Position numbers and translations under genes: made by a program. DNA of 64,000 nucleotides, from the IMG/VR virus record IMGVR_UViG_3300006153_000003, one strand, 5' to 3'. Below are positions 838 to 57,509 of the stretch, piece by piece. Positions within the stretch are counted from its first letter, which is position 1; every line of letters begins with the position of its first letter. This DNA is from a virus. Lineage: Duplodnaviria > Caudoviricetes. The notes under the pieces are model-generated. The model saw nothing but the letters and a program-made list of their open reading frames with translations. It ran no database searches and was not told where the DNA came from.

Positions 838-1830
838 TTATGCACTCAAATATTTTTTATGATGATACTGTACACTTGCTTGGTCAACAGTACAGTAAAT
901 CATAGTAGTTTCGAGTTTTGCGTGTCCTAAGAAGCGAGAAACTTCTTGTAAGGGCATTCCTCTATTCAATGCGTTAGTTGCTGCTGTCCGACGAAAACGA
1001 TGTGGATGAGCGTCTTCAACACCAGCGCGTTTGCCAATGCGTCGAATAATATCTTCTGCACCAGCTTTTGTTAATCGTTTGTTTGGTTTCCTTAATCCTA
1101 CAAATAAAGCAGGGTTATCATCATCCCGGCTATCTAAATATTCTTTCATGTACATACATGATCTGTCGTTCAAGTAAACAATTCTTTCTTTTCCTCCTTT
1201 CCCATACACGAGTAAGTCTCTTGTCATGAAATTCAAATCTTTTCTATCAAGACTTAAAAATTCACTTACTCGAACTGCTGTACTATACAAGAATTCTAAC
1301 ATTGCCTTATCTCTGAGATTAGTGCAGTTTCGAGATAGTAATTCCCTTTCTTCGTCTGTGTAAGGTTTCTTTAGAATCTGTTCCACCTTGATATCTGATA
1401 CGAGAACCATAGGATTTTTACGGATTCGATCACGGTCACGTAACCAGGTGAAAAAGCTATTAAAGACTGCTCGTACATTTCTTAAGGTTACATTTGCGAC
1501 TTTCCGTGTTGCTTTGTAGGTTCTCATGTATCTGGATATATCACCATCTGTTATCATATCTACAGGTTTGTTGATGTATGATAACAGACGATGTAATTCA
1601 TACTGGTATCGTATTGTTGTTTCTCTGGATCTGCCTTCAAGCATCTTTGCAATAATGAAATCTTCCAAGTCATCCATCCAACTGTCGTCTATAACCATTA
1701 GTTCCGTATTTTTGACTAAATCACAATCAGCAAAAGAGATTTGCATGATTTCTTTTAATTCCCCTAATTGTTTTTCATCTAAAATGTCTTGTGCTTTTCT
1801 CAATACTTCCATAATTTTTTGTTCAACCAT
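838..1830 (-). CDS. Tyrosine recombinase (XerC/D-like), probable shufflon invertase
   Basis: SAM-like N-terminal domain; TAVRVSE (R), GKGGKER (K), HPHRFRRT (HxxR), LGH and TTMIY catalytic motifs. Confidence 0.92.
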   Translation of the reverse strand: MVEQKIMEVLRKAQDILDEKQLGELKEIMQISFADCDLVKNTELMVIDDSWMDDLEDFIIAKMLEGRSRETTIRYQYELHRLLSYINKPVDMITDGDISRYMRTYKATRKVANVTLRNVRAVFNSFFTWLRDRDRIRKNPMVLVSDIKVEQILKKPYTDEERELLSRNCTNLRDKAMLEFLYSTAVRVSEFLSLDRKDLNFMTRDLLVYGKGGKERIVYLNDRSCMYMKEYLDSRDDDNPALFVGLRKPNKRLTKAGAEDIIRRIGKRAGVEDAHPHRFRRTAATNALNRGMPLQEVSRFLGHAKLETTMIYCTVDQASVQYHHKKYLSA

Positions 1831-3065: not shown

Positions 3066-4073
3066 ATGGCACATTTATTTGTAATCGCAGGACACGGACA
3101 CGGAGATTCAGGAGCAGTTGGGAATGGTTTCACAGAAGCAGAACGAGTAAGAGCATTAGCAAGTAGAATTGGTGAACTTGGAGGTTCAAATGTAACACTC
3201 GGAGATATGAGTCGTGACTATTATGCTGACAATGGAATATCAAAGCTTAATATTCCGAAGGACTGGGCGATTATCGAACTCCATATGGACAGCGGAGCAA
3301 GTTCAGCAAAAGGTGGTCACGTAATTATTTGCAGTGGATTAAATGCAGATGCATACGATAATGCACTTGCAAACTTTATTGGTGGAATACTTCCGGGGAG
3401 AAGCAACAAAATCGTAGCAAGAAACAACTTAGCAAATCCAAGACGGGCAAAAGCAAGAGGATTTAATTACCGTCTGTTAGAATGCGGATTTATATCTAAT
3501 GCAAATGACGTAGCTATTTTCAATAATAGAATGGATGAAATCGCCCGGGGAATTCTTGCTGCATTTGGAATCGGAGCGTCTGGTAAAGTAAATACGCCTG
3601 CACCGACTCCAGTGCCGACTCCGACACCTAAACCAACCAACAATACAAATGCTGGTGGCACGCAGGCAATGAAAAATGCTCAGGTACATATCAATAATTT
3701 CTGTGGGGCAGGTCTCGTTGCAGATGGAATTATTGGTCCCAAAACAAGAAAAGGACTTATTAAAGCTCTTCAGGTGGCTTTAAACAAGGACTATAATGCC
3801 AAACTTGTAGAAGATGGTATTTGGGGTCCTAAGACAAAAGCTGCATTAGGAAATCACTGTGTAGGCCGTGGAGATACTCAATATCTTGTGACTTTTGCAA
3901 AAATTGGACTTACTGCACTGAGCTACTTTGGGAATGCGGTAGAATCTCCTGGAAAGTTTGGATCTGATTTTGAAAAATCTGTTTATAATTTCCAGGTTGC
4001 AACTGGTTTAACGAAAGACAAAATTGTAGGGAAAAATACAATTAATATGATTCTAACAAAACTTGGATGTTAG
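3066..4073 (+). CDS. Endolysin: N-acetylmuramoyl-L-alanine amidase (Amidase_3) with PT linker and peptidoglycan-binding domains
   Basis: IAGHG..DSGAVG, E, ELHMD and LLECGFISN motifs; DGIIGPKT and DGIWGPKT repeats. Confidence 0.92.
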   Translation: MAHLFVIAGHGHGDSGAVGNGFTEAERVRALASRIGELGGSNVTLGDMSRDYYADNGISKLNIPKDWAIIELHMDSGASSAKGGHVIICSGLNADAYDNALANFIGGILPGRSNKIVARNNLANPRRAKARGFNYRLLECGFISNANDVAIFNNRMDEIARGILAAFGIGASGKVNTPAPTPVPTPTPKPTNNTNAGGTQAMKNAQVHINNFCGAGLVADGIIGPKTRKGLIKALQVALNKDYNAKLVEDGIWGPKTKAALGNHCVGRGDTQYLVTFAKIGLTALSYFGNAVESPGKFGSDFEKSVYNFQVATGLTKDKIVGKNTINMILTKLGC

Positions 4074-5296: not shown

Positions 5297-6526
5297 TCAT
5301 ATAATTACTTGTTTTGATAGTGTATCAACCATATTTTTCTTAGAATTTTGATTAACATGAACATATATTCTTGCCGTAGTATCATAATTTGCATGACCTA
5401 GCCACTCTTGGATTTCTTTCATCTGATACCCTAAGTTTAACAACAAAGAAGCACAACTATGTCTCAACCCATGAAATGTTATGGGTGGAAGTTCATTTTT
5501 TTTAATCACTTTTGAAAAAGTATGAGTAATATAAGTCGGTGTAATCAAATTACCATTTTCGTGAACAAATAAATATTCTAAATTATCAGTGTTATACGCA
5601 TTCCCGTAAATTTTCATATAATACTTTTTATCTTCAATTATCTTTTTCAAATATTCTTCTAATTCTGAAAATAACGGGAAACTTCTTATTGAAGATTCGT
5701 TTTTCAATTGATTTTTCTTTAAGTGCACAGTTCTATATTTGTTTTCAGTATCGTCTAACATAAACCCGGTCACTACGCTATGTTGTATATAAAGAATATG
5801 ATTAATAAAATCAACATCGCTTATTTTAATTCCAACCACTTCTTCTCTTCTTAACCCATAATAACTTGCTAATAACACAGGTATTAAAATTTTACTATCT
5901 TCAGATTTCAGAATATTAATTAATTCTTGAATTTGATCTATATTATACCACTGTGCTTTTTTTGTATCACATTTAGGCTTGACAACATTATCAATAGCTT
6001 CTTTCCTGATGTATCCTTCTTTTATAGCTTTTGATATTATCGACATTAAAGTTGCATAGTGTCGTTGCAGTGACGTTCCTGATAATTTTTTTCTTCCATC
6101 ATATCCATTCTTTTTTTCATCAAAATATCGATTAATGTCATTAGAATTTAGATTACAAATTTTTATCTTTTGTTTATAAAAATATGGATACAGATGCACT
6201 CGAACTGTTAATTCATCTGAGGCAAAAGTTATATCATCAACTCTACTCTTTTGAGTCTCAAGCCATTGCTTCATATAATCACAAAACAATAAAGACTCTT
6301 TATTATTCAAAAATTCTATATTTGTATGTTTAGAAGAATTGTATTTAGTCAATTCTTCTTCCAACATTATCTCGGCCTTCTTTTTATTTCCCCTTATATC
6401 TAATTTTGTATTTATCCATTTAAGTTTTCTTTTGTTTTCCTTATCATATAAATTTAAGACGATATACCATTTCCCATTTTTCTTTTGAACACTTCCTGTA
6501 ATCTCTTTTTTATTTTGGGTTTTCAC
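5297..6526 (-). CDS. int: Phage integrase (tyrosine recombinase with N-terminal arm-binding domain)
   Basis: YGLRREE, FHGLRHS, WLGH, TTARIY motifs; adjacent to attP. Confidence 0.95.
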   Translation of the reverse strand: MKTQNKKEITGSVQKKNGKWYIVLNLYDKENKRKLKWINTKLDIRGNKKKAEIMLEEELTKYNSSKHTNIEFLNNKESLLFCDYMKQWLETQKSRVDDITFASDELTVRVHLYPYFYKQKIKICNLNSNDINRYFDEKKNGYDGRKKLSGTSLQRHYATLMSIISKAIKEGYIRKEAIDNVVKPKCDTKKAQWYNIDQIQELINILKSEDSKILIPVLLASYYGLRREEVVGIKISDVDFINHILYIQHSVVTGFMLDDTENKYRTVHLKKNQLKNESSIRSFPLFSELEEYLKKIIEDKKYYMKIYGNAYNTDNLEYLFVHENGNLITPTYITHTFSKVIKKNELPPITFHGLRHSCASLLLNLGYQMKEIQEWLGHANYDTTARIYVHVNQNSKKNMVDTLSKQVII

Positions 6527-8470: not shown

Positions 8471-10202
8471 CAATGTTAACAACCTAACTCAAGCAACTAC
8501 AACATATAGTGTTTCTTTTAATTGGCACGGGATTCCCTGTGCCTTTCTTTATTTATAACCACTAATACGATTAAAATATTGCACAAAATTCGCCCATAAA
8601 AACCAGCATATTTACTATTGACATAAGCTCCAAAAAATGCGGCGCAGCCCTTGTTTATATTACTTTTTTAAGGGGGCTGCATCGTATGAATTTAATTCAA
8701 ATCTTAGTCGATATTATCTGTAACACATTACTTGATCCACATGTCCTTGAACGGGCCAGAAACAGAAAAGGGGCTTTTACACGCAATTGCGGGAAACTTC
8801 CCTATTGGACATTGATCAAACTGTTATTAAGAAATTCCAAGAAAACTATTTCTTCATCACTGGATGAATTCTTTACCGAATTGCGGCATATATCAGGAAT
8901 TCCAATCTCTGATACTGTGAAATGTTCCCAACAGGCTTTCAGCAAGGCCCGTTCCGGCATTGATCACTCTATTTTCAAAGAATGCTTCGAACGTGTACTT
9001 GACTTCCTTTGCAGCAGGGATTCCCTGGATTTCCATTCACGTTTCATGGGTGTATGGGGACGGCAGATCATTGCTGTTGACGGCTCTAAAATACCTCTTC
9101 CTAACCGTAAGACTCTTCTTGATAAATACGGCAGCATAGGGAGAGGCCAAAACTCTCCCACTGCCATTGCCAGTGTTGCTTTTGATGTACTGAATCACCG
9201 CATCCTTGATGCACAGCTCGAACCCATGAGCGTCGGTGAACGTACCCTTGCCATAAGGCATATGCAAAATATAAAAAGCAAAGCACGGACGAATCTATTA
9301 TACACCATATTTGTCTTCGATAGGGGATATGCTTCAAAAAATTTATTTTCTTTTATCGAAGACACCTTACATGCCGGATATCTCTTCCGGTTAAGGACTA
9401 AATTTAACACGGATATTGATGCACTCCCTGTACCGGCGGATCGAAATGGAATCAGTGACTATATCTTTTTCCTTGATGGCAGGAAAGTACGCATCCTTAA
9501 ATTTTACCTCCCAAGTGGGACGGTGGAAACGCTGATCACAAATGATTTTGACCTTGCCAAAGAACTGTTCCGCCAGTGTTACTTCCTTAGATGGCCGGTG
9601 GAGGAGAATTATAAGCTTGTCAAAGAAAAGATCGGGCTCACTAATTTCCGGGGCTATTCCGAGAACTCCGTTCTCCAGGAATTCTGGATATCGGTATTGC
9701 TTGCAAACCTGGCTCTTGCCATAAAGCGGGAGACGGACGGCATTGTTGACAGCACCATAAACCAGAAAGGGAATCAGAACAAATATATGACAAACATGAA
9801 TGAGCTTGTCGGATACCTGAGCCGTCACATAGGAGAATATATGGATGCTGATACAGACACAGAAAAGTATGGCATCATCCGCTGTATATTTGATTTTGCC
9901 GTATCTCACCGGGTGCGTGACAAAAAGGGCAGCGGGGAATCAAATCTACGTACAACTCCAAGAAAAGTCAAACATCATTACAATAACAAGACTACACACT
10001 AATACCATTTAAGAAAGGTGGTGGTGCCAGTTTCTTTATATTCTACAATACAAACGCCATATCTAAAAAAACAGCTGATAGCAACCAAGGGGAAAGTCTG
10101 CCCTTTTTTCAGTGTATTTTAATCATTTCTATCATCTGCTATTATTGGTTTAATAGCTTAATCCTATTGTGATATCATGCCACTACTAAGTTGTTAACAT
10201 TG
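8471..10202 (+). mobile_element. IS4-family insertion sequence
   Basis: Terminal inverted repeats CAATGTTAACAAC / GTTGTTAACATTG; 10-bp target duplication ATATTGAAAC at 8461-8470 and 10203-10212; higher GC. Confidence 0.93.
8686..10002 (+). CDS. IS4-family DDE transposase
   Basis: AVDGS, FDRGY and YFLRWPVEENYK (YREK) motifs; SQQAFSKAR. Confidence 0.93.
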   Translation: MNLIQILVDIICNTLLDPHVLERARNRKGAFTRNCGKLPYWTLIKLLLRNSKKTISSSLDEFFTELRHISGIPISDTVKCSQQAFSKARSGIDHSIFKECFERVLDFLCSRDSLDFHSRFMGVWGRQIIAVDGSKIPLPNRKTLLDKYGSIGRGQNSPTAIASVAFDVLNHRILDAQLEPMSVGERTLAIRHMQNIKSKARTNLLYTIFVFDRGYASKNLFSFIEDTLHAGYLFRLRTKFNTDIDALPVPADRNGISDYIFFLDGRKVRILKFYLPSGTVETLITNDFDLAKELFRQCYFLRWPVEENYKLVKEKIGLTNFRGYSENSVLQEFWISVLLANLALAIKRETDGIVDSTINQKGNQNKYMTNMNELVGYLSRHIGEYMDADTDTEKYGIIRCIFDFAVSHRVRDKKGSGESNLRTTPRKVKHHYNNKTTH

Positions 10203-48709: not shown

Positions 48710-48736
48710 TATTATTTTCTATATTGTTTTCTATAT

Positions 48737-49192
48737 TTAATCTAAATCTCCACAATGCACTAATGTGTTGCCACATCTAGGACATAATGTTTCACCTATG
48801 CCACCACTCCAACTTTCATACCATGGAGAAACCCATCTATTACAATGATGGCAAAACCAATCATAACAAATACTTCCGCTATATTTAATATCAGAGCTTC
48901 CGTATTTAGACTTACTATAAACAATTCTCCGTAGTCTTTCCTTTTCTTCTATTGCCTTTCTTTTTCGCTCTTCTATTTCCTTTTCTCTACGTTCTTCTTC
49001 TATCCATTTCAATTCTTGTTCTGAATATTCGTAGTCATCATCATACATCCCTTCAAATATTTCTTCTTCACCATTCCAACTACAGCATGGAGGTTCTATT
49101 GGTACACCACTCGCTCCCGAAGTCCAACCACCAATACAATCGTTTTGGTACAAAGGACATTCACTACAGTCTGTAATATTTTTTGCCTTAAT
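48737..49192 (-). CDS. Cys-rich hypothetical protein (probable ATT start)
   Basis: GGAGGTG ahead of ATT; CSEC, CHHC and CPRC motifs. Confidence 0.6.
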   Translation of the reverse strand: MKAKNITDCSECPLYQNDCIGGWTSGASGVPIEPPCCSWNGEEEIFEGMYDDDYEYSEQELKWIEEERREKEIEERKRKAIEEKERLRRIVYSKSKYGSSDIKYSGSICYDWFCHHCNRWVSPWYESWSGGIGETLCPRCGNTLVHCGDLD

Positions 49193-49235
49193 TTATATCA
49201 CCTCCAATCAAATGAAACAGATTTTTCATCTATAT

Positions 49236-49613
49236 TTATTCTTCTATCTTTTTGCATTTTATTTCGAAAAAGATCTTCATCCTTTCCTCTTCAACTCTTG
49301 TTTCTGCAAGTCTGCTTAAAAGATCAAGACAAGCACTTTTACAATTTATATGTGTTATTACATTATGCTTTTGCCCTCTTTCACCACCATATACAATCCA
49401 AGTGTCCCCTTTCTTTTCAAGACAAACTGTTTCTTCTGCATATCCTCCAAGAGAATAAAAATTTTCAGGAATGCCAAACTCTTTTAATATTTCGATTAAC
49501 ACATCTTGTATTTTTTCTTCCATCAATTTCATAGTCTCAGCTCCTTCAACACCATAACGGTAATAAAAATGCCCACAAGCATGTAGGTGACTTCGTAAAA
49601 TATACTCCTGCAA
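49236..49613 (-). CDS. Hypothetical protein, polymorphic-toxin-immunity-like (probable start at MKLMEEK)
   Basis: GIPENFYSL, W.VY..ERG pattern; function tentative. Confidence 0.45.
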   Translation of the reverse strand: MQEYILRSHLHACGHFYYRYGVEGAETMKLMEEKIQDVLIEILKEFGIPENFYSLGGYAEETVCLEKKGDTWIVYGGERGQKHNVITHINCKSACLDLLSRLAETRVEEERMKIFFEIKCKKIEE

Positions 49614-49761
49614 TAACTCCTATCGCAGTCGTGATCCACGCAGCTATTTGTACTTTCCAACGATTATCTATGTTTTTCACCTCCTACTTAAAATTTCCTT
49701 TAATATCTATACATATTTTTTTCACTTATACAAACACTACCTATGAAAGGAGTGTGTACGC

Positions 49762-49920
49762 ATGAAAAGTAGTAAAACAAATTTACCAACAATAAATCCT
49801 TACTCCAATGACGATTATGACGATGACAATATTCCAGAGGTTGATCTTCCAAAGACAACCGATGCCGAAAATATAATTCCAGATGAAGTGCCACGTCGTG
49901 ATGGTCCTGGTGGAGAGTGA
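49762..49920 (+). CDS. Small acidic protein (52 aa) ending VPRRDGPGGE, not in ORF track
   Basis: AAAGGAG RBS; manual translation; hairpin after the stop. Confidence 0.65.
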   Translation: MKSSKTNLPTINPYSNDDYDDDNIPEVDLPKTTDAENIIPDEVPRRDGPGGE

Positions 49921-49957
49921 GAGGGAATTTCCCCTTACTCACCCCCATACTCTCTCT

Positions 49958-50683
49958 TTACTCCTGCGGCCTGTCTGCTATGCAGGCAATATTTCCTTCA
50001 ATCTTTTTATAAGTATCATTTGCCATAAGAACCTGCAATACCGCATTGGACAGCATCGCCTTCGTGCTTTCATCAAATGCCGCCTTCACATCACGATTTA
50101 CCTGCTGGCGAACTTCATCCACCTGCTTATCCAGATAGCTTTTCACCTCATCATCAATTCCAAGGTGCTGCAGAAGATACTCTTCAAATGTATATTCCTT
50201 CGTTTCCGCTCTGTACCGCCCCTTATTGTACCTGTCCTTCTCAAAGTTCTTAACGATCCGGAATCTATTGTTTTCAATACAATCCTTTACGCATCGCTTC
50301 GCATACTGGAACAATGTAAGCTCTTCTTTCGGTTCATCATCCCAGACATTGGAACCACCAATGCAAATTTTCTCATTAACCATGAAATCCTGTACAATAT
50401 CCTTAATGATATCGCCGGTTGCACACTGAATCTTCTTCTGAATATCCTCCAGGACCTCTCTCTTGATCTCACTCACGATTTCGCTATATAGATTCTTCTT
50501 GACCTCTGATGCTACGACCTGCATAATTCCAGCCGCAAAATTTTCCGTGTTGAATTCTATTTTCAGATTTTCTCTCTCCATCTTTACTTCCGTATTATCC
50601 ATTCCGTCCTGTTCCTCCATTTCTTCCGGCGTAGGCTCGTAGTCCTCGCCATAATAATCATCATAATACATATTTAATTTCAC
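49958..50683 (-). CDS. Hypothetical helical phage protein, higher GC
   Basis: 241-aa ORF with AAGGAG upstream. Confidence 0.65.
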   Translation of the reverse strand: MKLNMYYDDYYGEDYEPTPEEMEEQDGMDNTEVKMERENLKIEFNTENFAAGIMQVVASEVKKNLYSEIVSEIKREVLEDIQKKIQCATGDIIKDIVQDFMVNEKICIGGSNVWDDEPKEELTLFQYAKRCVKDCIENNRFRIVKNFEKDRYNKGRYRAETKEYTFEEYLLQHLGIDDEVKSYLDKQVDEVRQQVNRDVKAAFDESTKAMLSNAVLQVLMANDTYKKIEGNIACIADRPQE

Positions 50684-50699
50684 TCCTTGCCACTAACTT

Positions 50700-50924
50700 T
50701 TAATCTAATGGATCGCCAACATCAAACAGCACTTTATTTACCACTTCGCCAATACCACACATATCTACCCCATACGGCTCCACATCTTTCCAACTGCACT
50801 TGTCACAATCTTGCCCCTTATGCAAAGCTTTCGCATGACATTCTTCCATATCTTTTTCCATCTGATCCGACACATGAAGTATCATCACTGTATGTGGTGC
50901 TTGGAAAAGTTTAATCTTTTTCAT
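50700..50924 (-). CDS. Hypothetical phage protein
   Basis: AAGGAG RBS. Confidence 0.55.
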   Translation of the reverse strand: MKKIKLFQAPHTVMILHVSDQMEKDMEECHAKALHKGQDCDKCSWKDVEPYGVDMCGIGEVVNKVLFDVGDPLD

Positions 50925-51037
50925 CTTTGGTCTCCTTTTATAAACTTTCGATTATTTACAGGTTCCAAATCATTTAATATTTTTCTAAGAATATATTGTG
51001 TGTAGTCATAAAATACTGCACACAATAAAATTCAAAA

Positions 51038-51796
51038 TCATTTCTTTCTATTTGCTTTTAATTCCTGTAACTTTTGATCCACTTCCTCATCTTTCATACG
51101 TTTATCAAGACGCATTTGCTGAACAGTTGAAGAATTCTCATAAGCAACTTTATTCCCATCAGCTTCTTCTTTGGTTTTACGGATTCCATCTCTTACTTTT
51201 TCTAACATTTTATCTTCTTCTTTGGACGAAATACCAGGTGTTGCTTGTAATGACTTAGTGACCTGTGCTGTTTCAAGTGTTAGGATTGCATTTTCTTTTT
51301 CTGATTTCAAATCTCCTAACTCAGCAAAAATATTATCTACAGTCTCTTTTTGCAGGACAGAATTAGACTTAAGTTCTTTTAAAGCATTTTTAATAATGTC
51401 TACTTTTTCATTTACTTCCTGTTGTCGTTTTAAATAAACCTTTGCACCTTCATCATCATTCTTATCAACACAGGTATTGATGTTGAGATTTAATTGCATA
51501 TTCTCTTTCTGCAAAATTCTCAATTGTTCTTCATACGTTTGAATTTTTCCTAACATTTGCGTGTAGATAGAATAAGCCTTTTGATAATCATTTCCCTTCG
51601 CTGCTATTGCAGTATTATAATATGCCTTGGCCCCCTCCGGTGTAGAAGCGTCTTTTGAAATCAATTCGTCTGCTGTTCCAGAAGCCCTTAATCTTATTCT
51701 TTTACCCACCTTAGTAAAAAACAATACACCTCCAATAGTGCAAACAAAAATTAAAATAGCTAGTAGATTTACCATATCAATCCCTTCCTTCATCAA
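51038..51796 (-). CDS. PspA/IM30-like coiled-coil protein with N-terminal TM helix
   Basis: Long helical coiled coil, A..YL and KLQELKA C-terminus; probable start at MVNLL. Confidence 0.65.
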   Translation of the reverse strand: MMKEGIDMVNLLAILIFVCTIGGVLFFTKVGKRIRLRASGTADELISKDASTPEGAKAYYNTAIAAKGNDYQKAYSIYTQMLGKIQTYEEQLRILQKENMQLNLNINTCVDKNDDEGAKVYLKRQQEVNEKVDIIKNALKELKSNSVLQKETVDNIFAELGDLKSEKENAILTLETAQVTKSLQATPGISSKEEDKMLEKVRDGIRKTKEEADGNKVAYENSSTVQQMRLDKRMKDEEVDQKLQELKANRKK

Positions 51797-52415
51797 TATC
51801 TAATCCAAAATTCTTAAAAAGTTCTGTCATACCTCCCACGTAACCTGAACCCATAGCCTGAAACTTAAATCCATCACCATAACGGTATAAACGCCCCATT
51901 TCTACTGCATTCAAATCTGTAAATTTTTCTTCTTCAGACAAATCATACTCTGCAACAAATCCTTTAGGATTATCGTAATCACAAATTATCATTTTGGCAT
52001 TGCTCACCATCCCAAAATTTTGTAATCTCTGTATTGCTCTAAAAATAGTTAAGCACACTGTAAAATCTGTTCTTTCTTTAGGAAACTTGTCTGCATGAAT
52101 AATAAAATATTCGTCATAATGTTTACCGTTAAAATTAATTCCCTGTGAATCGTCACCTGTTCGATTATCTCCTGAAAACTCAATCCATGGATAATCAGTA
52201 CCATTTCCATAAGTATTATAATTTACAATATCTTTAGGATAAGCCACTTTTCTATCCGAATTAGTTAACATCCCATGGATATCAAAATCAATATCTGACT
52301 CTCCTGCAAAACGATTCTCATCCCAATTAACTCCAATAAAGATATTTTTAATTGCACTTCCATCTTCTTTTGCCATACTAATCTTTTGATTCTTACTCAT
52401 ATTAATTACTGCCAT
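51777..52415 (-). CDS. TerD-family protein
   Basis: GVNWD, DFD, GDNRTGD, QNFGMVSNA, GRLYR and FKFQAMGSG motifs. Confidence 0.9.
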   Translation of the reverse strand: MAVINMSKNQKISMAKEDGSAIKNIFIGVNWDENRFAGESDIDFDIHGMLTNSDRKVAYPKDIVNYNTYGNGTDYPWIEFSGDNRTGDDSQGINFNGKHYDEYFIIHADKFPKERTDFTVCLTIFRAIQRLQNFGMVSNAKMIICDYDNPKGFVAEYDLSEEEKFTDLNAVEMGRLYRYGDGFKFQAMGSGYVGGMTELFKNFGLDIDEGRD

Positions 52416-52436
52416 TATTTAACCCTCCATTTTCAA

Positions 52437-53201
52437 TTATTTACTGTTTAACCAATCTTTATATTGTCTTAAAATTTCACTATATAGCTCTTCATCACTC
52501 ATCCTATTCATATCTTTTACTGCTGTAAATCCTGTATTATCATACTTGCGTCTTTTCATATCATCTAAAGAACGTAAATAATCAAAACTTTCATTTCCAA
52601 TACCAATAAACTGAACAAACATATTGTAATTAGATAATTCTCTAATAATTCTGTTTGTCTCTTCGGTATCCCAATTTTCTCCATCTGTTATAAAGATAAT
52701 AAAAGCTGGGATTTCACTTGGTTCAATATCCTTATAATATGAGACAATATCTTTTAAAACTGGTGCATAACTGGTCCCTCCCATACTCATACCTGATCTC
52801 ATCATCACTTTTCTTACATAATTCTTATAATTATTAATATCAACTGCTTCAAGGCGCTTCATACTATTTGAAAATAACCAAGATTCTAATTCACCATTGT
52901 CATCAAACTTCAATGCTATTGGTAAAAGCCTTGTAATTGTATCCTGGACAGAACCATTATTAAACAGCTCACTCATACTTCCTGAATAATCCATAGCCAA
53001 TGCAACTCTTGCAGTATGCTTTGACATATCAATCTTACTTGTTTTCGACATATCAATTAGAACCTTGTTTAGGCTTTTGGCCGACTTTGACATATCAATT
53101 GTTACATTTTCTAAATTCTGTAATGCTACTGGTGTGGCGGTACTATCATGCACCACCATCTGAGAATCCTTTCTACCAAACAATTTTTCAAATAATCCCA
53201 T
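52437..53201 (-). CDS. vWA domain protein (TerF-associated type)
   Basis: DYSGSM MIDAS, GGTSY, FITDG, QFIGIG and DNTGF motifs. Confidence 0.88.
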   Translation of the reverse strand: MGLFEKLFGRKDSQMVVHDSTATPVALQNLENVTIDMSKSAKSLNKVLIDMSKTSKIDMSKHTARVALAMDYSGSMSELFNNGSVQDTITRLLPIALKFDDNGELESWLFSNSMKRLEAVDINNYKNYVRKVMMRSGMSMGGTSYAPVLKDIVSYYKDIEPSEIPAFIIFITDGENWDTEETNRIIRELSNYNMFVQFIGIGNESFDYLRSLDDMKRRKYDNTGFTAVKDMNRMSDEELYSEILRQYKDWLNSK

Positions 53202-53213
53202 TTGTTTCCTCCT

Positions 53214-55820
53214 TTAATTCTTTTTTCTTTTTGTAATATATTTTCTTAATATATCAATTGGAATCACAATAAATCCTAGTCCAATTATGACCATCCATTG
53301 AACGATATTTAATGAACTAACCTTAATAAGATTTCCCATAAACGTACAAACTGCCATCGTTCCTATAAAAATTCCCAAAGCAATTTTTGTAAATAATTTA
53401 TTGCTGCTCAATCCACTAAGCAAATTCATATGTTCTGTTCTAATATTGAAACCATTAAATACTGCCATGAAACATAAGAGAGCAAATCTGGCCGTCAAGC
53501 TTTCCAATTCCGATGTAAATATGCATTTAATTGGAGAAATTGTAAGTATCCCGTAAACAGCGATAAAAGAACACGTACTTATTGCAATTCTTTCTTTTGC
53601 CCCTCTAATAAACAAACCTGATCCTTTTTTAATAGGTTTCTCACTCATATATTCTTCTTTTGGAGGTTCTCCACCAAAAGAAAGTGAATTAAGAGAATCC
53701 ATAATAATGTTTACAATTAAAATCTGAACTGATGCTAATATAGACGCTCCCGCAGACAACATCGGGTATACAATGCTTAAAATCAAAAGTGAAATATTAA
53801 TTGGTAATTGAAATTCTAGGAACATCATGATATTATGCATAAATGTTCTACCCAGTTCTACTGCCTTTACTGTTGAAGCAAAATTGTCATCAGTTAATAC
53901 AATATCGCTTGCTTCTTTTGCTACGTCGCTCCCACTTTGCATCCCAAATCCAACATCTGCCCTCTTTAATGCCGGAGAATCATTTACGCCATCTCCTGTC
54001 ATTGCTACAGATTTACCAATTTCCTGTGCCAATGTTACAAGCCTAAGTTTCGTATTAGGAGAACATCTGGAAATTACTCTAAGCGAAGGAATTACATTCT
54101 TTACTTCTTCATCTGTCATTGCTTCAAATTCATCATTTGATAAAGCTACATCACCCTCTTTATAAATTCCACATTCTCTCGCTACTGAAATAGCTGTTTC
54201 AATACAATCTCCTGTAATTTCAATTACTTGAATACCAGCTTTACGTGCAACCCTTACAGCGTTTGGCACTTCCAACCTTACAGGATCAACTACACCAATA
54301 ATTCCAAGCAATGTCATTTCTGATGGCAGTATATTTTCAATTAAATCTTCGTTTTTCATGGCTAAAGCAATACACCTAATTGACTTCGATGTCATTGTTC
54401 TAATAGTCTCATCTATACTCTTCTTCATTGTGGACGTTAAATCACATATCGATCCATCATTTTTCATAACTCTTGTGCAAGAATCAATCAATTTTTCAGG
54501 AGCCCCTTTGTAATATGTAGTCCCATTTTCAGAAGTAAAAGCTGAATACTTATTAGAACTGTTAAATACCTGCTTGTCCTTCATATTATTATTGTTCAAA
54601 ACAGATAAATACTCTTCATTTTTCACAAGAGAAAGTATAGCTCTATCAATTGAATTGCCGCCTGTAATATTATTTTTGTTGTCAAACGTTGCACTATTGT
54701 TTAATATAATATTCTTTTCAATTTCGCTCCAAAGAGGAGAATTTCGATCAACTTCCTTCCCTTCTCCACTTACAATTGTTTTTGGACTCATAACTCCTGT
54801 TGTTAAGGTCCCTGTTTTGTCAGTGCAAATAATATCTACATAGGCTAATTCTGGAATTTTATTTGGATTTTTTGCCAAAATATTAAATTGTTCCATTGTT
54901 TTAACATTTTGTTTAGTTACAAGTTTTACAATTAATGGAAGTCCTTCTGGAACTGCAGCTACAATGATTGTTAATGCTACCGAAAAATTTTGTGCAAATT
55001 TTTGAATAATATTAAATGGACTATCTGCAAAATATTCGCTAAATCCAACTTCTACAATTCCTGATACAGTAAGGATAACAAATGTTAAAATTGCTGCGAT
55101 TGTTCCCCATTTTGAGATAAATTCACTCAAATTATCAAGTGCAATATCTAATGCTGTCTTAGGTGATTCCAATGTCTGCATTTTAACCATTGTGTCTCCA
55201 TTAATGGTATTAATTCCAACATCTGTTACAACCATCTTCCCCTCACCGGCCATTACTGTAGTTCCTGCAAATAGACAGTTTTCATTTGTATATGCATCTG
55301 TAGATGTTGTTTTCTTATGAATATATCCCTCCACTGGGTACTTTTTACATTCTTTGCTTTCTCCATTTATTGCAGCGTTATTTACAGAAATCTTTCCTTC
55401 TACAATATAACCATCAGCGAATATCTCTTGCCCCATTCCTAGACAAACCAAATCACCAATTACAATATCATCCTTGTTAATTGTTACTACTTTTCCATCA
55501 CGAATAACATCACAATATCGAATTGATGTTTTTGCTCTTAATTCTGCGGCCGATTTCTGTACACCCAATCCTGTTTTTACAGCAATTCCAGTTACAATTC
55601 CAAGCACTACCATAATCATAATAGGTTCTGAAAATTCCATTACACCCATAAATGCAAGAAATAATTGAATAATTGCAATCGCAATAAGAATGAGTGTGAT
55701 TTTTTCGCTCAAAGCATCTTTTGCAAAATCGTACCAACTTTTCAACTCTGGTTCTGGCAGCTTATTACTACCATATTTTTCTCTACTTTTTAATACTTCA
55801 TTGTTTGTTAATCCTTTCAT
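53214..55820 (-). CDS. Calcium-translocating (PMCA/P2-type) P-type ATPase
   Basis: NGES, VPEGL, DKTGTLT, KGAPE, DPVR and MTGDGVND motifs; multiple TM helices. Confidence 0.92.
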   Translation of the reverse strand: MKGLTNNEVLKSREKYGSNKLPEPELKSWYDFAKDALSEKITLILIAIAIIQLFLAFMGVMEFSEPIMIMVVLGIVTGIAVKTGLGVQKSAAELRAKTSIRYCDVIRDGKVVTINKDDIVIGDLVCLGMGQEIFADGYIVEGKISVNNAAINGESKECKKYPVEGYIHKKTTSTDAYTNENCLFAGTTVMAGEGKMVVTDVGINTINGDTMVKMQTLESPKTALDIALDNLSEFISKWGTIAAILTFVILTVSGIVEVGFSEYFADSPFNIIQKFAQNFSVALTIIVAAVPEGLPLIVKLVTKQNVKTMEQFNILAKNPNKIPELAYVDIICTDKTGTLTTGVMSPKTIVSGEGKEVDRNSPLWSEIEKNIILNNSATFDNKNNITGGNSIDRAILSLVKNEEYLSVLNNNNMKDKQVFNSSNKYSAFTSENGTTYYKGAPEKLIDSCTRVMKNDGSICDLTSTMKKSIDETIRTMTSKSIRCIALAMKNEDLIENILPSEMTLLGIIGVVDPVRLEVPNAVRVARKAGIQVIEITGDCIETAISVARECGIYKEGDVALSNDEFEAMTDEEVKNVIPSLRVISRCSPNTKLRLVTLAQEIGKSVAMTGDGVNDSPALKRADVGFGMQSGSDVAKEASDIVLTDDNFASTVKAVELGRTFMHNIMMFLEFQLPINISLLILSIVYPMLSAGASILASVQILIVNIIMDSLNSLSFGGEPPKEEYMSEKPIKKGSGLFIRGAKERIAISTCSFIAVYGILTISPIKCIFTSELESLTARFALLCFMAVFNGFNIRTEHMNLLSGLSSNKLFTKIALGIFIGTMAVCTFMGNLIKVSSLNIVQWMVIIGLGFIVIPIDILRKYITKRKKN

Positions 55821-56174
55821 TTGTCCTCCTTATATTTTATATCTGTTTTATAACATCTATAACAAAAGAATGTTAAAAATAATAAGGCCTAATACATTGA
55901 CCTTTCATCTCAGAATATATCTTCTACATCTGGGTTCAAATCATTCTCCTATTATCATCCAATTTCGTAACAAACTATCTAAACTTGAATATGGACATTC
56001 TGCATTGCTTTTAAGATCCCCGTAAGAATATACAATACTTTCCTTGAAATCTCTTTATTGATATTTTTATCATATATGTACCTCCTTTTTTAAAACCGCA
56101 AGAATTTGTACCTATAAATTTTCCTATAATCATTCATCATCTCCTCAGTTAAAATCTCGATTTTGTAGTGAGAG

Positions 56175-57509
56175 TTAAGCACCTTCAACCACTAACTCTT
56201 CAGCTTCCTCCATATCTGGAGCATCTGCTTTATCCTTGATTATCCCTTCAAGAACCTTAAAACTGAAATTCTTATGTTTATATGCTGTAAATTTCTCTCG
56301 ATTGTCAATTCTAACAACAACACCTTCCCTTACATGTGTCTTTCCAACCGGGTCAGCACCGTCATAATATTTCTCGACTCTCTCCATCAAATCTTCCCAT
56401 GTAGTAAATACAAACTTTTCAAAAGTAGGAACACACTTAACCCCCAGCTTCTTACATTCAATCTGTACCTGCTCCCAAGGAAGTTCCACAGCAAACCCGT
56501 CCTCATTTGTCATAGTCATTCGATATACATAAATATCATTTTCACCTGGCTCACACCCATATGAGAATACAGTTTCCTTACCATACTGCTTTTCAAAATC
56601 CTTATCTTTGACAAGTTTATTTGAACATCTTCCCATAATTGTTTGATTACCCTCTGTATATCCTACAATCTCATAAAATACTTCTACACCTTTTGGCAGT
56701 TTATCTTTGAAAAAGTCCTGATATTTCTGCCTAAACGCATTGCTACCATAATATCCACCTTCGTAATTCCTTAGTGTAGTTCTCTTGGTCCCACTTACTA
56801 CAGTGAATCTTTTTACTTCTTTATCCTTAATCTTAAATATTTTTTTCAAAATATAATGTCTTTTCTTTTTTACAATCTCAATAGCATTTGCAGTTCTGGC
56901 AGATGTGCCATGCATTTTAAGTGTTATGTAACAGGTATCACCCTCTCTAAAAGCATTTTGATTATATGCAAGCTGCGCAGTATCAATATGCTCAACAAAG
57001 AATGGATAAGAAACCTTTTCTTTTTCTTCTTTCTTATTTCTATTTTTATTCCCAGAAGAATTGTTTTCGCACCTTCTCCGATTAGAACGTGGAATATATT
57101 TTTTGCAAATTTCATGCCCATCCAACATAGAAATCTGGTCGCCATCTGATAATGTTTTTACGTCTACATATTTATTTAACACTTCAATTGGCAATACAAG
57201 TCCGTCTGACTTTTCACTTCTGAGTTTTAGAGCTGTGATATTTCTCTTATCAGGATCAAGATACCCTCCAACATTATTACCGTTTTCATCTTTCAAGCGA
57301 ACAAGATTATTTTCACACGCAAATTCTTCACTTAACTGACCATCTACAGGAAAATAAATTACTCGTTGCCCTTCTGTATAACTCATATCTACAATTACAT
57401 TGTTTCCAAAAATTGTTGCACACTGTAATCTGTCTGCATTACTATGTTTTCTAAGCTGCTTAATTGTTGTTATGTATCCACAATATCCATTTGTTCTATT
57501 TTGTTCCAA
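56175..57509 (-). CDS. RNA ligase (Rnl2-like) with N-terminal OB/tRNA-binding domain
   Basis: HSNADRL, KMHGTS (motif I), EIVG, REGVV and YKHK motifs. Confidence 0.85.
   Translation of the reverse strand: MEQNRTNGYCGYITTIKQLRKHSNADRLQCATIFGNNVIVDMSYTEGQRVIYFPVDGQLSEEFACENNLVRLKDENGNNVGGYLDPDKRNITALKLRSEKSDGLVLPIEVLNKYVDVKTLSDGDQISMLDGHEICKKYIPRSNRRRCENNSSGNKNRNKKEEKEKVSYPFFVEHIDTAQLAYNQNAFREGDTCYITLKMHGTSARTANAIEIVKKKRHYILKKIFKIKDKEVKRFTVVSGTKRTTLRNYEGGYYGSNAFRQKYQDFFKDKLPKGVEVFYEIVGYTEGNQTIMGRCSNKLVKDKDFEKQYGKETVFSYGCEPGENDIYVYRMTMTNEDGFAVELPWEQVQIECKKLGVKCVPTFEKFVFTTWEDLMERVEKYYDGADPVGKTHVREGVVVRIDNREKFTAYKHKNFSFKVLEGIIKDKADAPDMEEAEELVVEGA

Follow-up and report, generated by a model that had tools for sequence, protein, structure and literature searches.

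A recurrent phage cassette of a PMCA-type Ca2+ ATPase with vWA, TerD and PspA/Vipp1-like proteins: a candidate cation-linked membrane-stress module

Why should a bacteriophage carry a complete calcium pump, and why should this pump be followed by a von Willebrand factor A (vWA) protein, a TerD protein and a protein resembling the membrane-stabilizing PspA? The question is raised by a stretch of 64,000 nucleotides (hereafter, the window) of the IMG/VR virus record IMGVR_UViG_3300006153_000003 (Caudoviricetes), in which an earlier sequence-only reading had recognized four tightly packed co-oriented genes. All four open reading frames (ORFs) were confirmed at their positions on the minus strand. 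Together they form a 4.8 kb cassette flanked by a spacer and a hairpin:

53214..55820 (-), pump gene: PMCA-type (P2B-like) Ca2+-exporting P-type ATPase, as predicted by Pfam and NCBIfam, 868 aa
52437..53201 (-), vWA-TerF-like gene, 254 aa (PF10138)
51777..52415 (-), divergent TerD-domain gene, 212 aa (PF02342)
51038..51775 (-), gene of a PspA/Vipp1-like membrane-anchored protein with a predicted ESCRT-III fold, ~245 aa (fold and profile)
50989..51033 (-), hairpin with a U-rich tail, possible operon terminator (fold energy)
55821..56174 (-), 354-nt spacer from the RNA ligase gene to the pump gene, possible promoter region (sequence)

The gaps between the genes, from the pump to the PspA-like gene, are 12, 21 and 1 nt, and a strong Shine-Dalgarno sequence is situated upstream of each gene (AAGGAGG before the pump ATG). 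The hairpin lies directly 3' of the last stop codon and has a folding energy of -14.7 kcal/mol (z -3.3 vs shuffles), although a consensus terminator scan did not call it. Because of the tight gaps, the Shine-Dalgarno sequences, the 354-nt spacer and the 3' hairpin, the four genes look like a single operon with its own ends. The promoter scan was uninformative: 34 sigma-70-like sites were found vs 36 expected, one of them in the spacer (55908-55879), and an alignment of 12 cassette upstream regions revealed neither a conserved promoter or leader nor conservation of the spacer itself. The existence of the fourth gene stands as first read, but its start most probably does not. The longest ORF begins with TTG at 51796 and gives 252 aa (51038-51796), while ATG at 51775, one base past the TerD stop and behind GAAGGAAGGGA, gives 245 aa. 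As the relatives of this protein are mostly 243-245 aa long, ATG 51775 is taken as the real start. The spacer also contains a 20-codon ORF (MIKISIKRFQGKYCIFLRGS; 56011-56073, minus strand) with a strong AAAGGAGG Shine-Dalgarno sequence, and a 16-codon ORF just before it.

The association of these genes is not a peculiarity of the window. Relatives of the pump were found on 137 stretches of IMG/VR and relatives of the vWA protein on 74. The ORFs downstream of each pump were classified with profiles made from our own alignments, which resulted in 119 distinct complete cassettes with the following layouts:

pump-vWA-TerD-PspA-like (the window type), 71 of 119
pump-TerD-TerD-TerD-PspA-like, 41 of 119
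pump-vWA-3xTerD-PspA-like, 5 of 119
pump-4xTerD-PspA-like, 1 of 119
pump-TerD only, 1 of 119

As can be seen, pump, TerD and PspA-like genes follow each other in the same order in 118 of the 119 cassettes, with three main layouts, and the recurrence of the gene order of the window in 71 distinct cassettes takes the association far beyond chance. According to this gene-neighbourhood survey the four genes are conserved together, contrary to what would have refuted the first reading. In the cassettes with three TerD genes the place of vWA after the pump is occupied by a 63-aa ORF with two hydrophobic segments (L002:10618-10809, plus strand; also L153-L155), which recalls the small protein co-transcribed with the pump of Jug phages (see below). 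One 250 kb provirus record, IMGVR_UViG_3300029402_000234, contains two different whole cassettes (L065 and L077) separated by ~190 kb, whose pumps share 67% and 64% identity with that of the window; the record could be either two tandem phages or a chimeric assembly.

The cassette is conserved in composition and at the same time readily gained and lost. Among 38 long phage records with related DNA polymerases (59-97% identity), the same six carry both pump and TerD, and the other 32 carry neither. Three records with polymerases 91-97% identical to that of the window and an estimated completeness of 92-95% are without pump and TerD. In the sibling provirus G026 (polymerase 97% identical) other genes are found in place of the cassette:

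L262:3925-6371 (G026:C1:45424-47870), AAA_33 kinase and HD protein (303 aa) and TnpB/IS605 OrfB-type protein (435 aa); equivalent to 48718-56191 of the window

The site between the RNA ligase and DNA methyltransferase genes is thus a variable hot spot. Conversely, phages with pumps 63-76% identical to that of the window have polymerases only 24-34% identical, and in phages with an 81% identical polymerase the pumps are 47-49% identical. The parts of the cassette are exchanged among themselves as well. Pump and PspA-like identities correlate across cassettes with r = 0.61, there are 49 locus pairs with pumps ≥85% identical and PspA-like proteins ≤55% identical, and 11 combinations of component types occur; in L032 and L047, for example, the pumps are 92% identical vs 37% for the PspA-like proteins and 34% for TerD. 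On these comparisons of sequences the cassette is accessory, horizontally exchanged and mosaic. Its composition is nevertheless kept through the replacement of its parts, and this is the strongest evidence obtained here that pump, TerD and PspA-like protein work together.

PMCA-type pumps export Ca2+, and several features place the phage pump next to them. All domains of a cation P-type ATPase are found by Pfam. The best NCBIfam model is the PMCA-type TIGR01517 (501.9 bits, ~5 bits under the equivalog cut-off of 507.05), with the scores on the PMR1, SERCA, H+, Mg2+ and Na/K models well behind. The closest solved structures are plant ACA8 (8qmp, 3.5e-102), Listeria LMCA1, SPCA1 and human PMCA1/2. 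The motifs DKTGT and PEGL are intact, as had been read from the sequence, and so are TGD and GDGVND. In an alignment of the C-terminal membrane part, FQLPIN of transmembrane helix (TM) 5 corresponds to FQLTVN of PMCA and VNIIMDS of TM6 to VNLIMDT. The residues of Ca2+ site II, namely the Glu of PEGL in TM4 and the Asn and Asp of TM6 (VNxxMD), are thus all present, in the manner of single-site Ca2+ exporters. The phage pump shares its catalytic motifs and this single-site arrangement (TM4 Glu, TM6 Asn/Asp) with the PMCA-type (P2B) and LMCA1-type ATPases; it is 30-35% identical to the solved Ca2+ pumps and differs from the PMCA/LMCA1 pumps in having no calmodulin-binding tail and in its actuator-domain motif. 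Among 119 distinct pump relatives (45-98% identity), DKTGT, PEGL, TGD and GDGxND are retained in 118-119, and VPEGLP and the TM5/TM6 residues are nearly invariant (V/INI(I/V)MDS in TM6). The A-domain motif is not TGES but NGES in 38 of them and NGET in 81, i.e. the catalytic Glu is retained and all members of the clade have Asn in the position of Thr. From the PMCA-like site residues we infer the probable Ca2+ specificity and the direction of transport. In a tblastn search of a cultured-phage database the pump found matches ≤34% identical, mostly in short unannotated "phage" records, which are taken to be host DNA.

TerD proteins are widespread and bind Ca2+. The window protein matches PF02342 at 2e-35 (122.4 bits vs a gathering threshold of 25.3) and Klebsiella TerD (2kxt) at 3.7e-22. 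Its acidic GDNRTG motif, one of those first listed as intact, is indeed present, but the loop that it opens is not contiguous. Where the canonical Ca2+ loop reads GDN(R/L)TGEGDGDDE, the window TerD has GDNRTGDD, then an insertion of 8 residues relative to 2KXT, and only then DE. The insertion is conserved in all cassettes of the vWA type, whereas TerD paralogues of other cassette types, e.g. those with three TerD genes, retain the canonical acidic loop.

The vWA protein belongs to the vWA-TerF-like family PF10138 (4.7e-60, 203.6 bits vs a threshold of 29.4) and matches Copine as well (5.2e-10). MIDAS sites bind divalent cations, and the reported MIDAS was found complete: 13 relatives, down to 29% identity, all have D71, S73, S75, T143 and D173. 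Residues 1-62 contain a repeated IDMSK...LIDMSK...IDMSK stretch similar to strand 1 of TerD. Members of the cassette family share the N-terminal motif MGLFxKLFG, which we take to resemble the start of PspA/Vipp1. The possibility that it forms an amphipathic membrane helix similar to α0 of those proteins was considered and is unsupported, its hydrophobic moment being 0.15-0.39 vs a background median of 0.30.

PspA and Vipp1 polymers bind stressed membranes and stabilize them. The relationship of the fourth protein to this family becomes visible through its relatives and its predicted fold. The window protein itself has no Pfam match over threshold (PF04012 at 10 bits, E 0.67, vs a gathering threshold of 33.9 bits); relatives from other cassettes match PF04012 at 8.4e-6 and 4.7e-4 (26 and 20 bits) over nearly the whole profile. 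With a profile of 16 relatives, Vipp1/PspA are the best solved sequences (E 0.001), in a register that aligns to Vipp1 residues 29-183. The AlphaFold model is a long helical hairpin (pLDDT 78, >90 over residues 60-170), for which the 12 best Foldseek matches are all Vipp1/PspA with a probability of 1.00, including 6zvr, 8qbs and 4whe (for the latter TMt 0.76, rmsd 1.8 over 116 columns). According to this model the protein has the helical-hairpin fold of the ESCRT-III type, the same as in PspA, Vipp1 (IM30) and LiaH of the bacterial ESCRT-III superfamily (PF04012). Since every full-length relative starts with a strongly hydrophobic 19-mer (Kyte-Doolittle 2.6-3.7), it is predicted to be tethered by its own N-terminal transmembrane helix, which stands in the place of the amphipathic helix α0. 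It further differs from PspA/Vipp1/LiaH in scoring below the Pfam gathering threshold and in being without partners of the PspBC/LiaI type. An exhaustive profile search for the family returned only 371 representative clusters; the PspA-like protein has a single match in the cultured-phage database, and the family was not found in the 398 other Clostridia genomes scored. Context look-ups of distant relatives revealed ABC-transporter or Thg1 neighbours, that is, other phage-like membrane neighbourhoods, or contigs that were too short, and no cellular ancestor of the cassette. A predicted complex of TerD and the soluble portion of the PspA-like protein scored 0.01, which, in a run without controls, speaks neither for nor against binding.

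The module is phage-borne, as first read: the window also encodes DNA polymerase, RecJ, NAD ligase, NrdD, two integrases and an endolysin, and further helicases, an RNA ligase and a CCA-adding enzyme. Near its left end lie the following genes:

838-1830 (-), tyrosine recombinase
5297-6526 (-), tyrosine recombinase
8686-10002 (+), DDE transposase
3066-4073 (+), amidase endolysin with peptidoglycan-binding domains

These genes are compatible with a temperate phage, and the phage group is considered temperate because several of the related IMG/VR records are classed as proviruses. Going by near relatives, the size of the phage is about 130-160 kb. At the DNA level the module has no counterpart in the cultured-phage database, where only the RNA ligase matches (Bacillus and Lysinibacillus phages). 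Downstream of the cassette a 241-aa ORF (49958-50683, minus strand) has no Pfam, PHROG or PADLOC match; its relatives, 33-35% identical, precede the pump gene by a few kb in other phages with the cassette (L032, L037, L047, L051, L082 and L105).

The hosts are Ruminococcus/Oscillospiraceae. Close relatives of the pump occur in metagenome-assembled genomes labelled Ruminococcus, Oscillospiraceae, Lachnospiraceae, other Clostridia and one Treponema, several of them from ruminant-gut samples. They are also present in the isolate Ruminococcus sp. AM36-2AA and on a metagenomic contig of 774 kb, where an integrase and a gene for a PemK toxin are close by. In the genome of this isolate the sole TerD match is the prophage copy, and its own pumps of the Ca2+ type are 31-33% identical to the phage pump. 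The cassette thus adds new functions to this host. The comparison with a host covers one genome, that of the host of a relative (G001), for which a recent host origin of the phage pump was rejected on the same 31-33% identity of its own pumps.

The cassette is a further member of a recently described module, and the gain over the papers of 2026 is incremental. According to a bioRxiv survey (10.64898/2026.10.24.761521, Oct 2026), a Ca2+ P-type ATPase is the most frequent of the membrane proteins encoded near phage pspA (42 of 189 loci), and genes for TerD and VWA are located between pspA and the Ca2+ ATPase gene, i.e. in neighbourhoods with the same composition as the cassette of the window. 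That survey is centred on huge phages (>200 kb), whereas the window phage is smaller and temperate. Compared with it, the present additions are the near-identical siblings without the cassette, the distant exchange, the part-swapping, the transmembrane anchor and the TerD-less host. Chen et al. (Sci Adv 2026, PMC12880540) described Ca2+ P-type ATPases in more than 1500 Jug (jumbo gut) phages and in other gut phages, among them four smaller phages of 159-197 kb, as well as Bacillota-like pumps. With these and the relatives on the 137 IMG/VR stretches, the initial statement that a full P-type pump is unusual in a phage is outdated. Jug phages resemble the window phage in having a Ca2+ pump with intact DKTGT, several TerD genes and a pspA-like gene, beside which one of the terD genes is located. 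In contrast to the single operon of the window, their pump gene is transcribed apart from the TerD/pspA-like genes and has a small protein of 77-91 aa as its companion, and the hosts are Bacteroides/Phocaeicola rather than of the Ruminococcus type (PMC12880540).

With the Ter systems terZABCDEF/TerY (Anantharaman, Iyer and Aravind 2012, cited in PMC7824862) the cassette shares TerD, the TerF-type vWA and the predicted sensing of metals at the membrane. Its vWA and TerD pair corresponds to TerF split into two genes, while its membrane components are the Ca2+ pump and the PspA-like protein instead of those of the Ter systems. In five cassette-bearing relatives no TerC (PF03741) was found, and no TelA (PF05816) over the cut-off (the search did not extend to TerB, TerA or the nucleoside-biosynthesis module), and the cassette is for this reason not regarded as a canonical Ter system of the terZABCDE/yceCDEFGH type. 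PADLOC-DB v2 gave no match, e.g. to TerY-P, for the four proteins and two downstream ORFs. New here are the accessory and mosaic nature of the cassette, the transmembrane anchor predicted for the PspA-like protein, the modified TerD loop, the NGE(S/T) motif and a host without another TerD.

What, then, may the cassette do? Each of its parts is a Ca2+/divalent-cation or a membrane protein, and we consider it about an even call that the putative operon is a cation (Ca2+)-linked membrane-stress module. When the membrane of an infected or lysogenic cell is perturbed, Ca2+ would leak in and would be bound or sensed by the two cytoplasmic proteins of the module, TerD and vWA; the anchored PspA-like polymer would stabilize or seal the bilayer, and the pump would restore the low cytosolic Ca2+. 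The cell would thereby be kept energized until the long replication cycle of a ~160-kb phage ends. The retention of the catalytic and ion-site motifs over the whole range of pump identities, a sign of selection, favours this assignment, as does the high transcription of the same genes in Jug phages (PMC12880540). The contacts between the proteins, the timing of their expression and the benefit to the phage are what we infer beyond this. Several observations pull the other way. The pump is slightly below the PMCA equivalog cut-off and has NGES in place of TGES. The window PspA-like protein reaches only 10 bits on PF04012 and is devoid of the α0 of true PspA, and Ca2+ binding by the window TerD is not assured, because the insertion interrupts its loop. 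As close siblings of the phage lack the cassette, it is not required for replication, and such dispensability suits a role in conflict or lysogenic conversion at least as well as a housekeeping role at the membrane. Finally, as the phage is temperate, expression could take place from the prophage rather than in lytic growth.

The last two points lead directly to the alternatives, which overlap with the membrane-stress assignment and with each other and are separable only by expression timing and phenotypes. The sequence-only reading had itself suggested a calcium-controlled system against superinfection or membrane-depolarizing abortive infection. In this case the membrane of the infected or lysogenic cell would be hardened against DNA injected by other phages, against bacteriocins or against pore-forming abortive-infection effectors of the host, with Ca2+ influx as the alarm. 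Classical ter loci confer phage and colicin resistance, which counts in favour of this explanation. The patchy distribution, frequent horizontal exchange and part-swapping are typical of conflict genes, the cassette sits in a variable spot where a sibling phage has TnpB and PNK/HD genes, and the phage is temperate, with its two integrases and provirus records. A role of phage Ter genes in the competition with superinfecting phages was proposed by Iyer et al. 2021 (PMC7824862). Against this stand the lack of a PADLOC match for any of the four proteins, the failure to find TerC and TelA in the five relatives (a search that did not include TerB and TerA), and the position of the operon, which lies co-oriented within an extended run of genes for replication, RNA repair and DNA modification and is not adjacent to the integrase or to an attachment site. 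We consider such exclusion or counter-defence unlikely, though deserving of serious attention. Slightly less probable still is lysogenic conversion, in which the prophage would give a TerD-less host a Ter-like, Ca2+-linked tolerance to membrane-damaging stresses of the gut (e.g. bile, antimicrobial peptides or metals) and hence a fitter lysogen. It would account for the AM36-2AA genome, where the only TerD is that of the prophage and the own pumps are so distant, and it is in line with the failure to find the PspA-like family in the other scored Clostridia and with the moron-like layout (own upstream spacer and 3' hairpin). Iyer et al. 2021 (PMC7824862) mention xenobiotic resistance of the host as well. 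On the other side, the promoter-like match in the spacer does not exceed chance, the cassette shares its strand and context with genes of the lytic cycle, and the comparison with the host rests on one genome.

The pump may also act on Ca2+ per se, lowering the cytosolic or raising the surface concentration and in this way reprogramming metabolism or aiding virion assembly, stability or adsorption; TerD and vWA would then be buffers and the PspA-like gene a fellow traveller. The authors of the Jug phage study favour manipulation of host intracellular Ca2+ (PMC12880540), and the pump, with its intact motifs, is the most conserved part of the cassette. This explanation is the least probable of those considered, and quite improbable in our opinion, for 118 of 119 cassettes contain a PspA-like gene together with the pump, including those in which the PspA-like lineage was exchanged, which argues that this gene encodes a working partner and not a passenger. 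A further possibility is that the cassette represents a bacterial-virus version of Ca2+-triggered ESCRT-III membrane repair. In such a scheme TerD and the copine-like vWA would read the Ca2+ that enters at a lesion and would trigger the tethered PspA-like protein to polymerize there, after which the pump would remove the Ca2+ and return the system to its initial state. We hold this to be a rather small chance, below that of lysogenic conversion and above that of Ca2+ manipulation as such.

The linkage of TerD to a Ca2+ pump and a PspA-like protein survives the swap of these parts to distant versions, which is good comparative evidence for their joint work. The cassette is also well suited to experiments: it is compact (4.8 kb), near-isogenic phages with and without it exist naturally (e.g. 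the 98% relative G002 vs the siblings G004 and G026 with a 97% identical polymerase), and at least one Ruminococcus isolate in culture carries it in a prophage. If the repair scheme is true, TerD proteins, unexplained for decades, would be Ca2+ sensors for a repair polymer of the ESCRT-III type.

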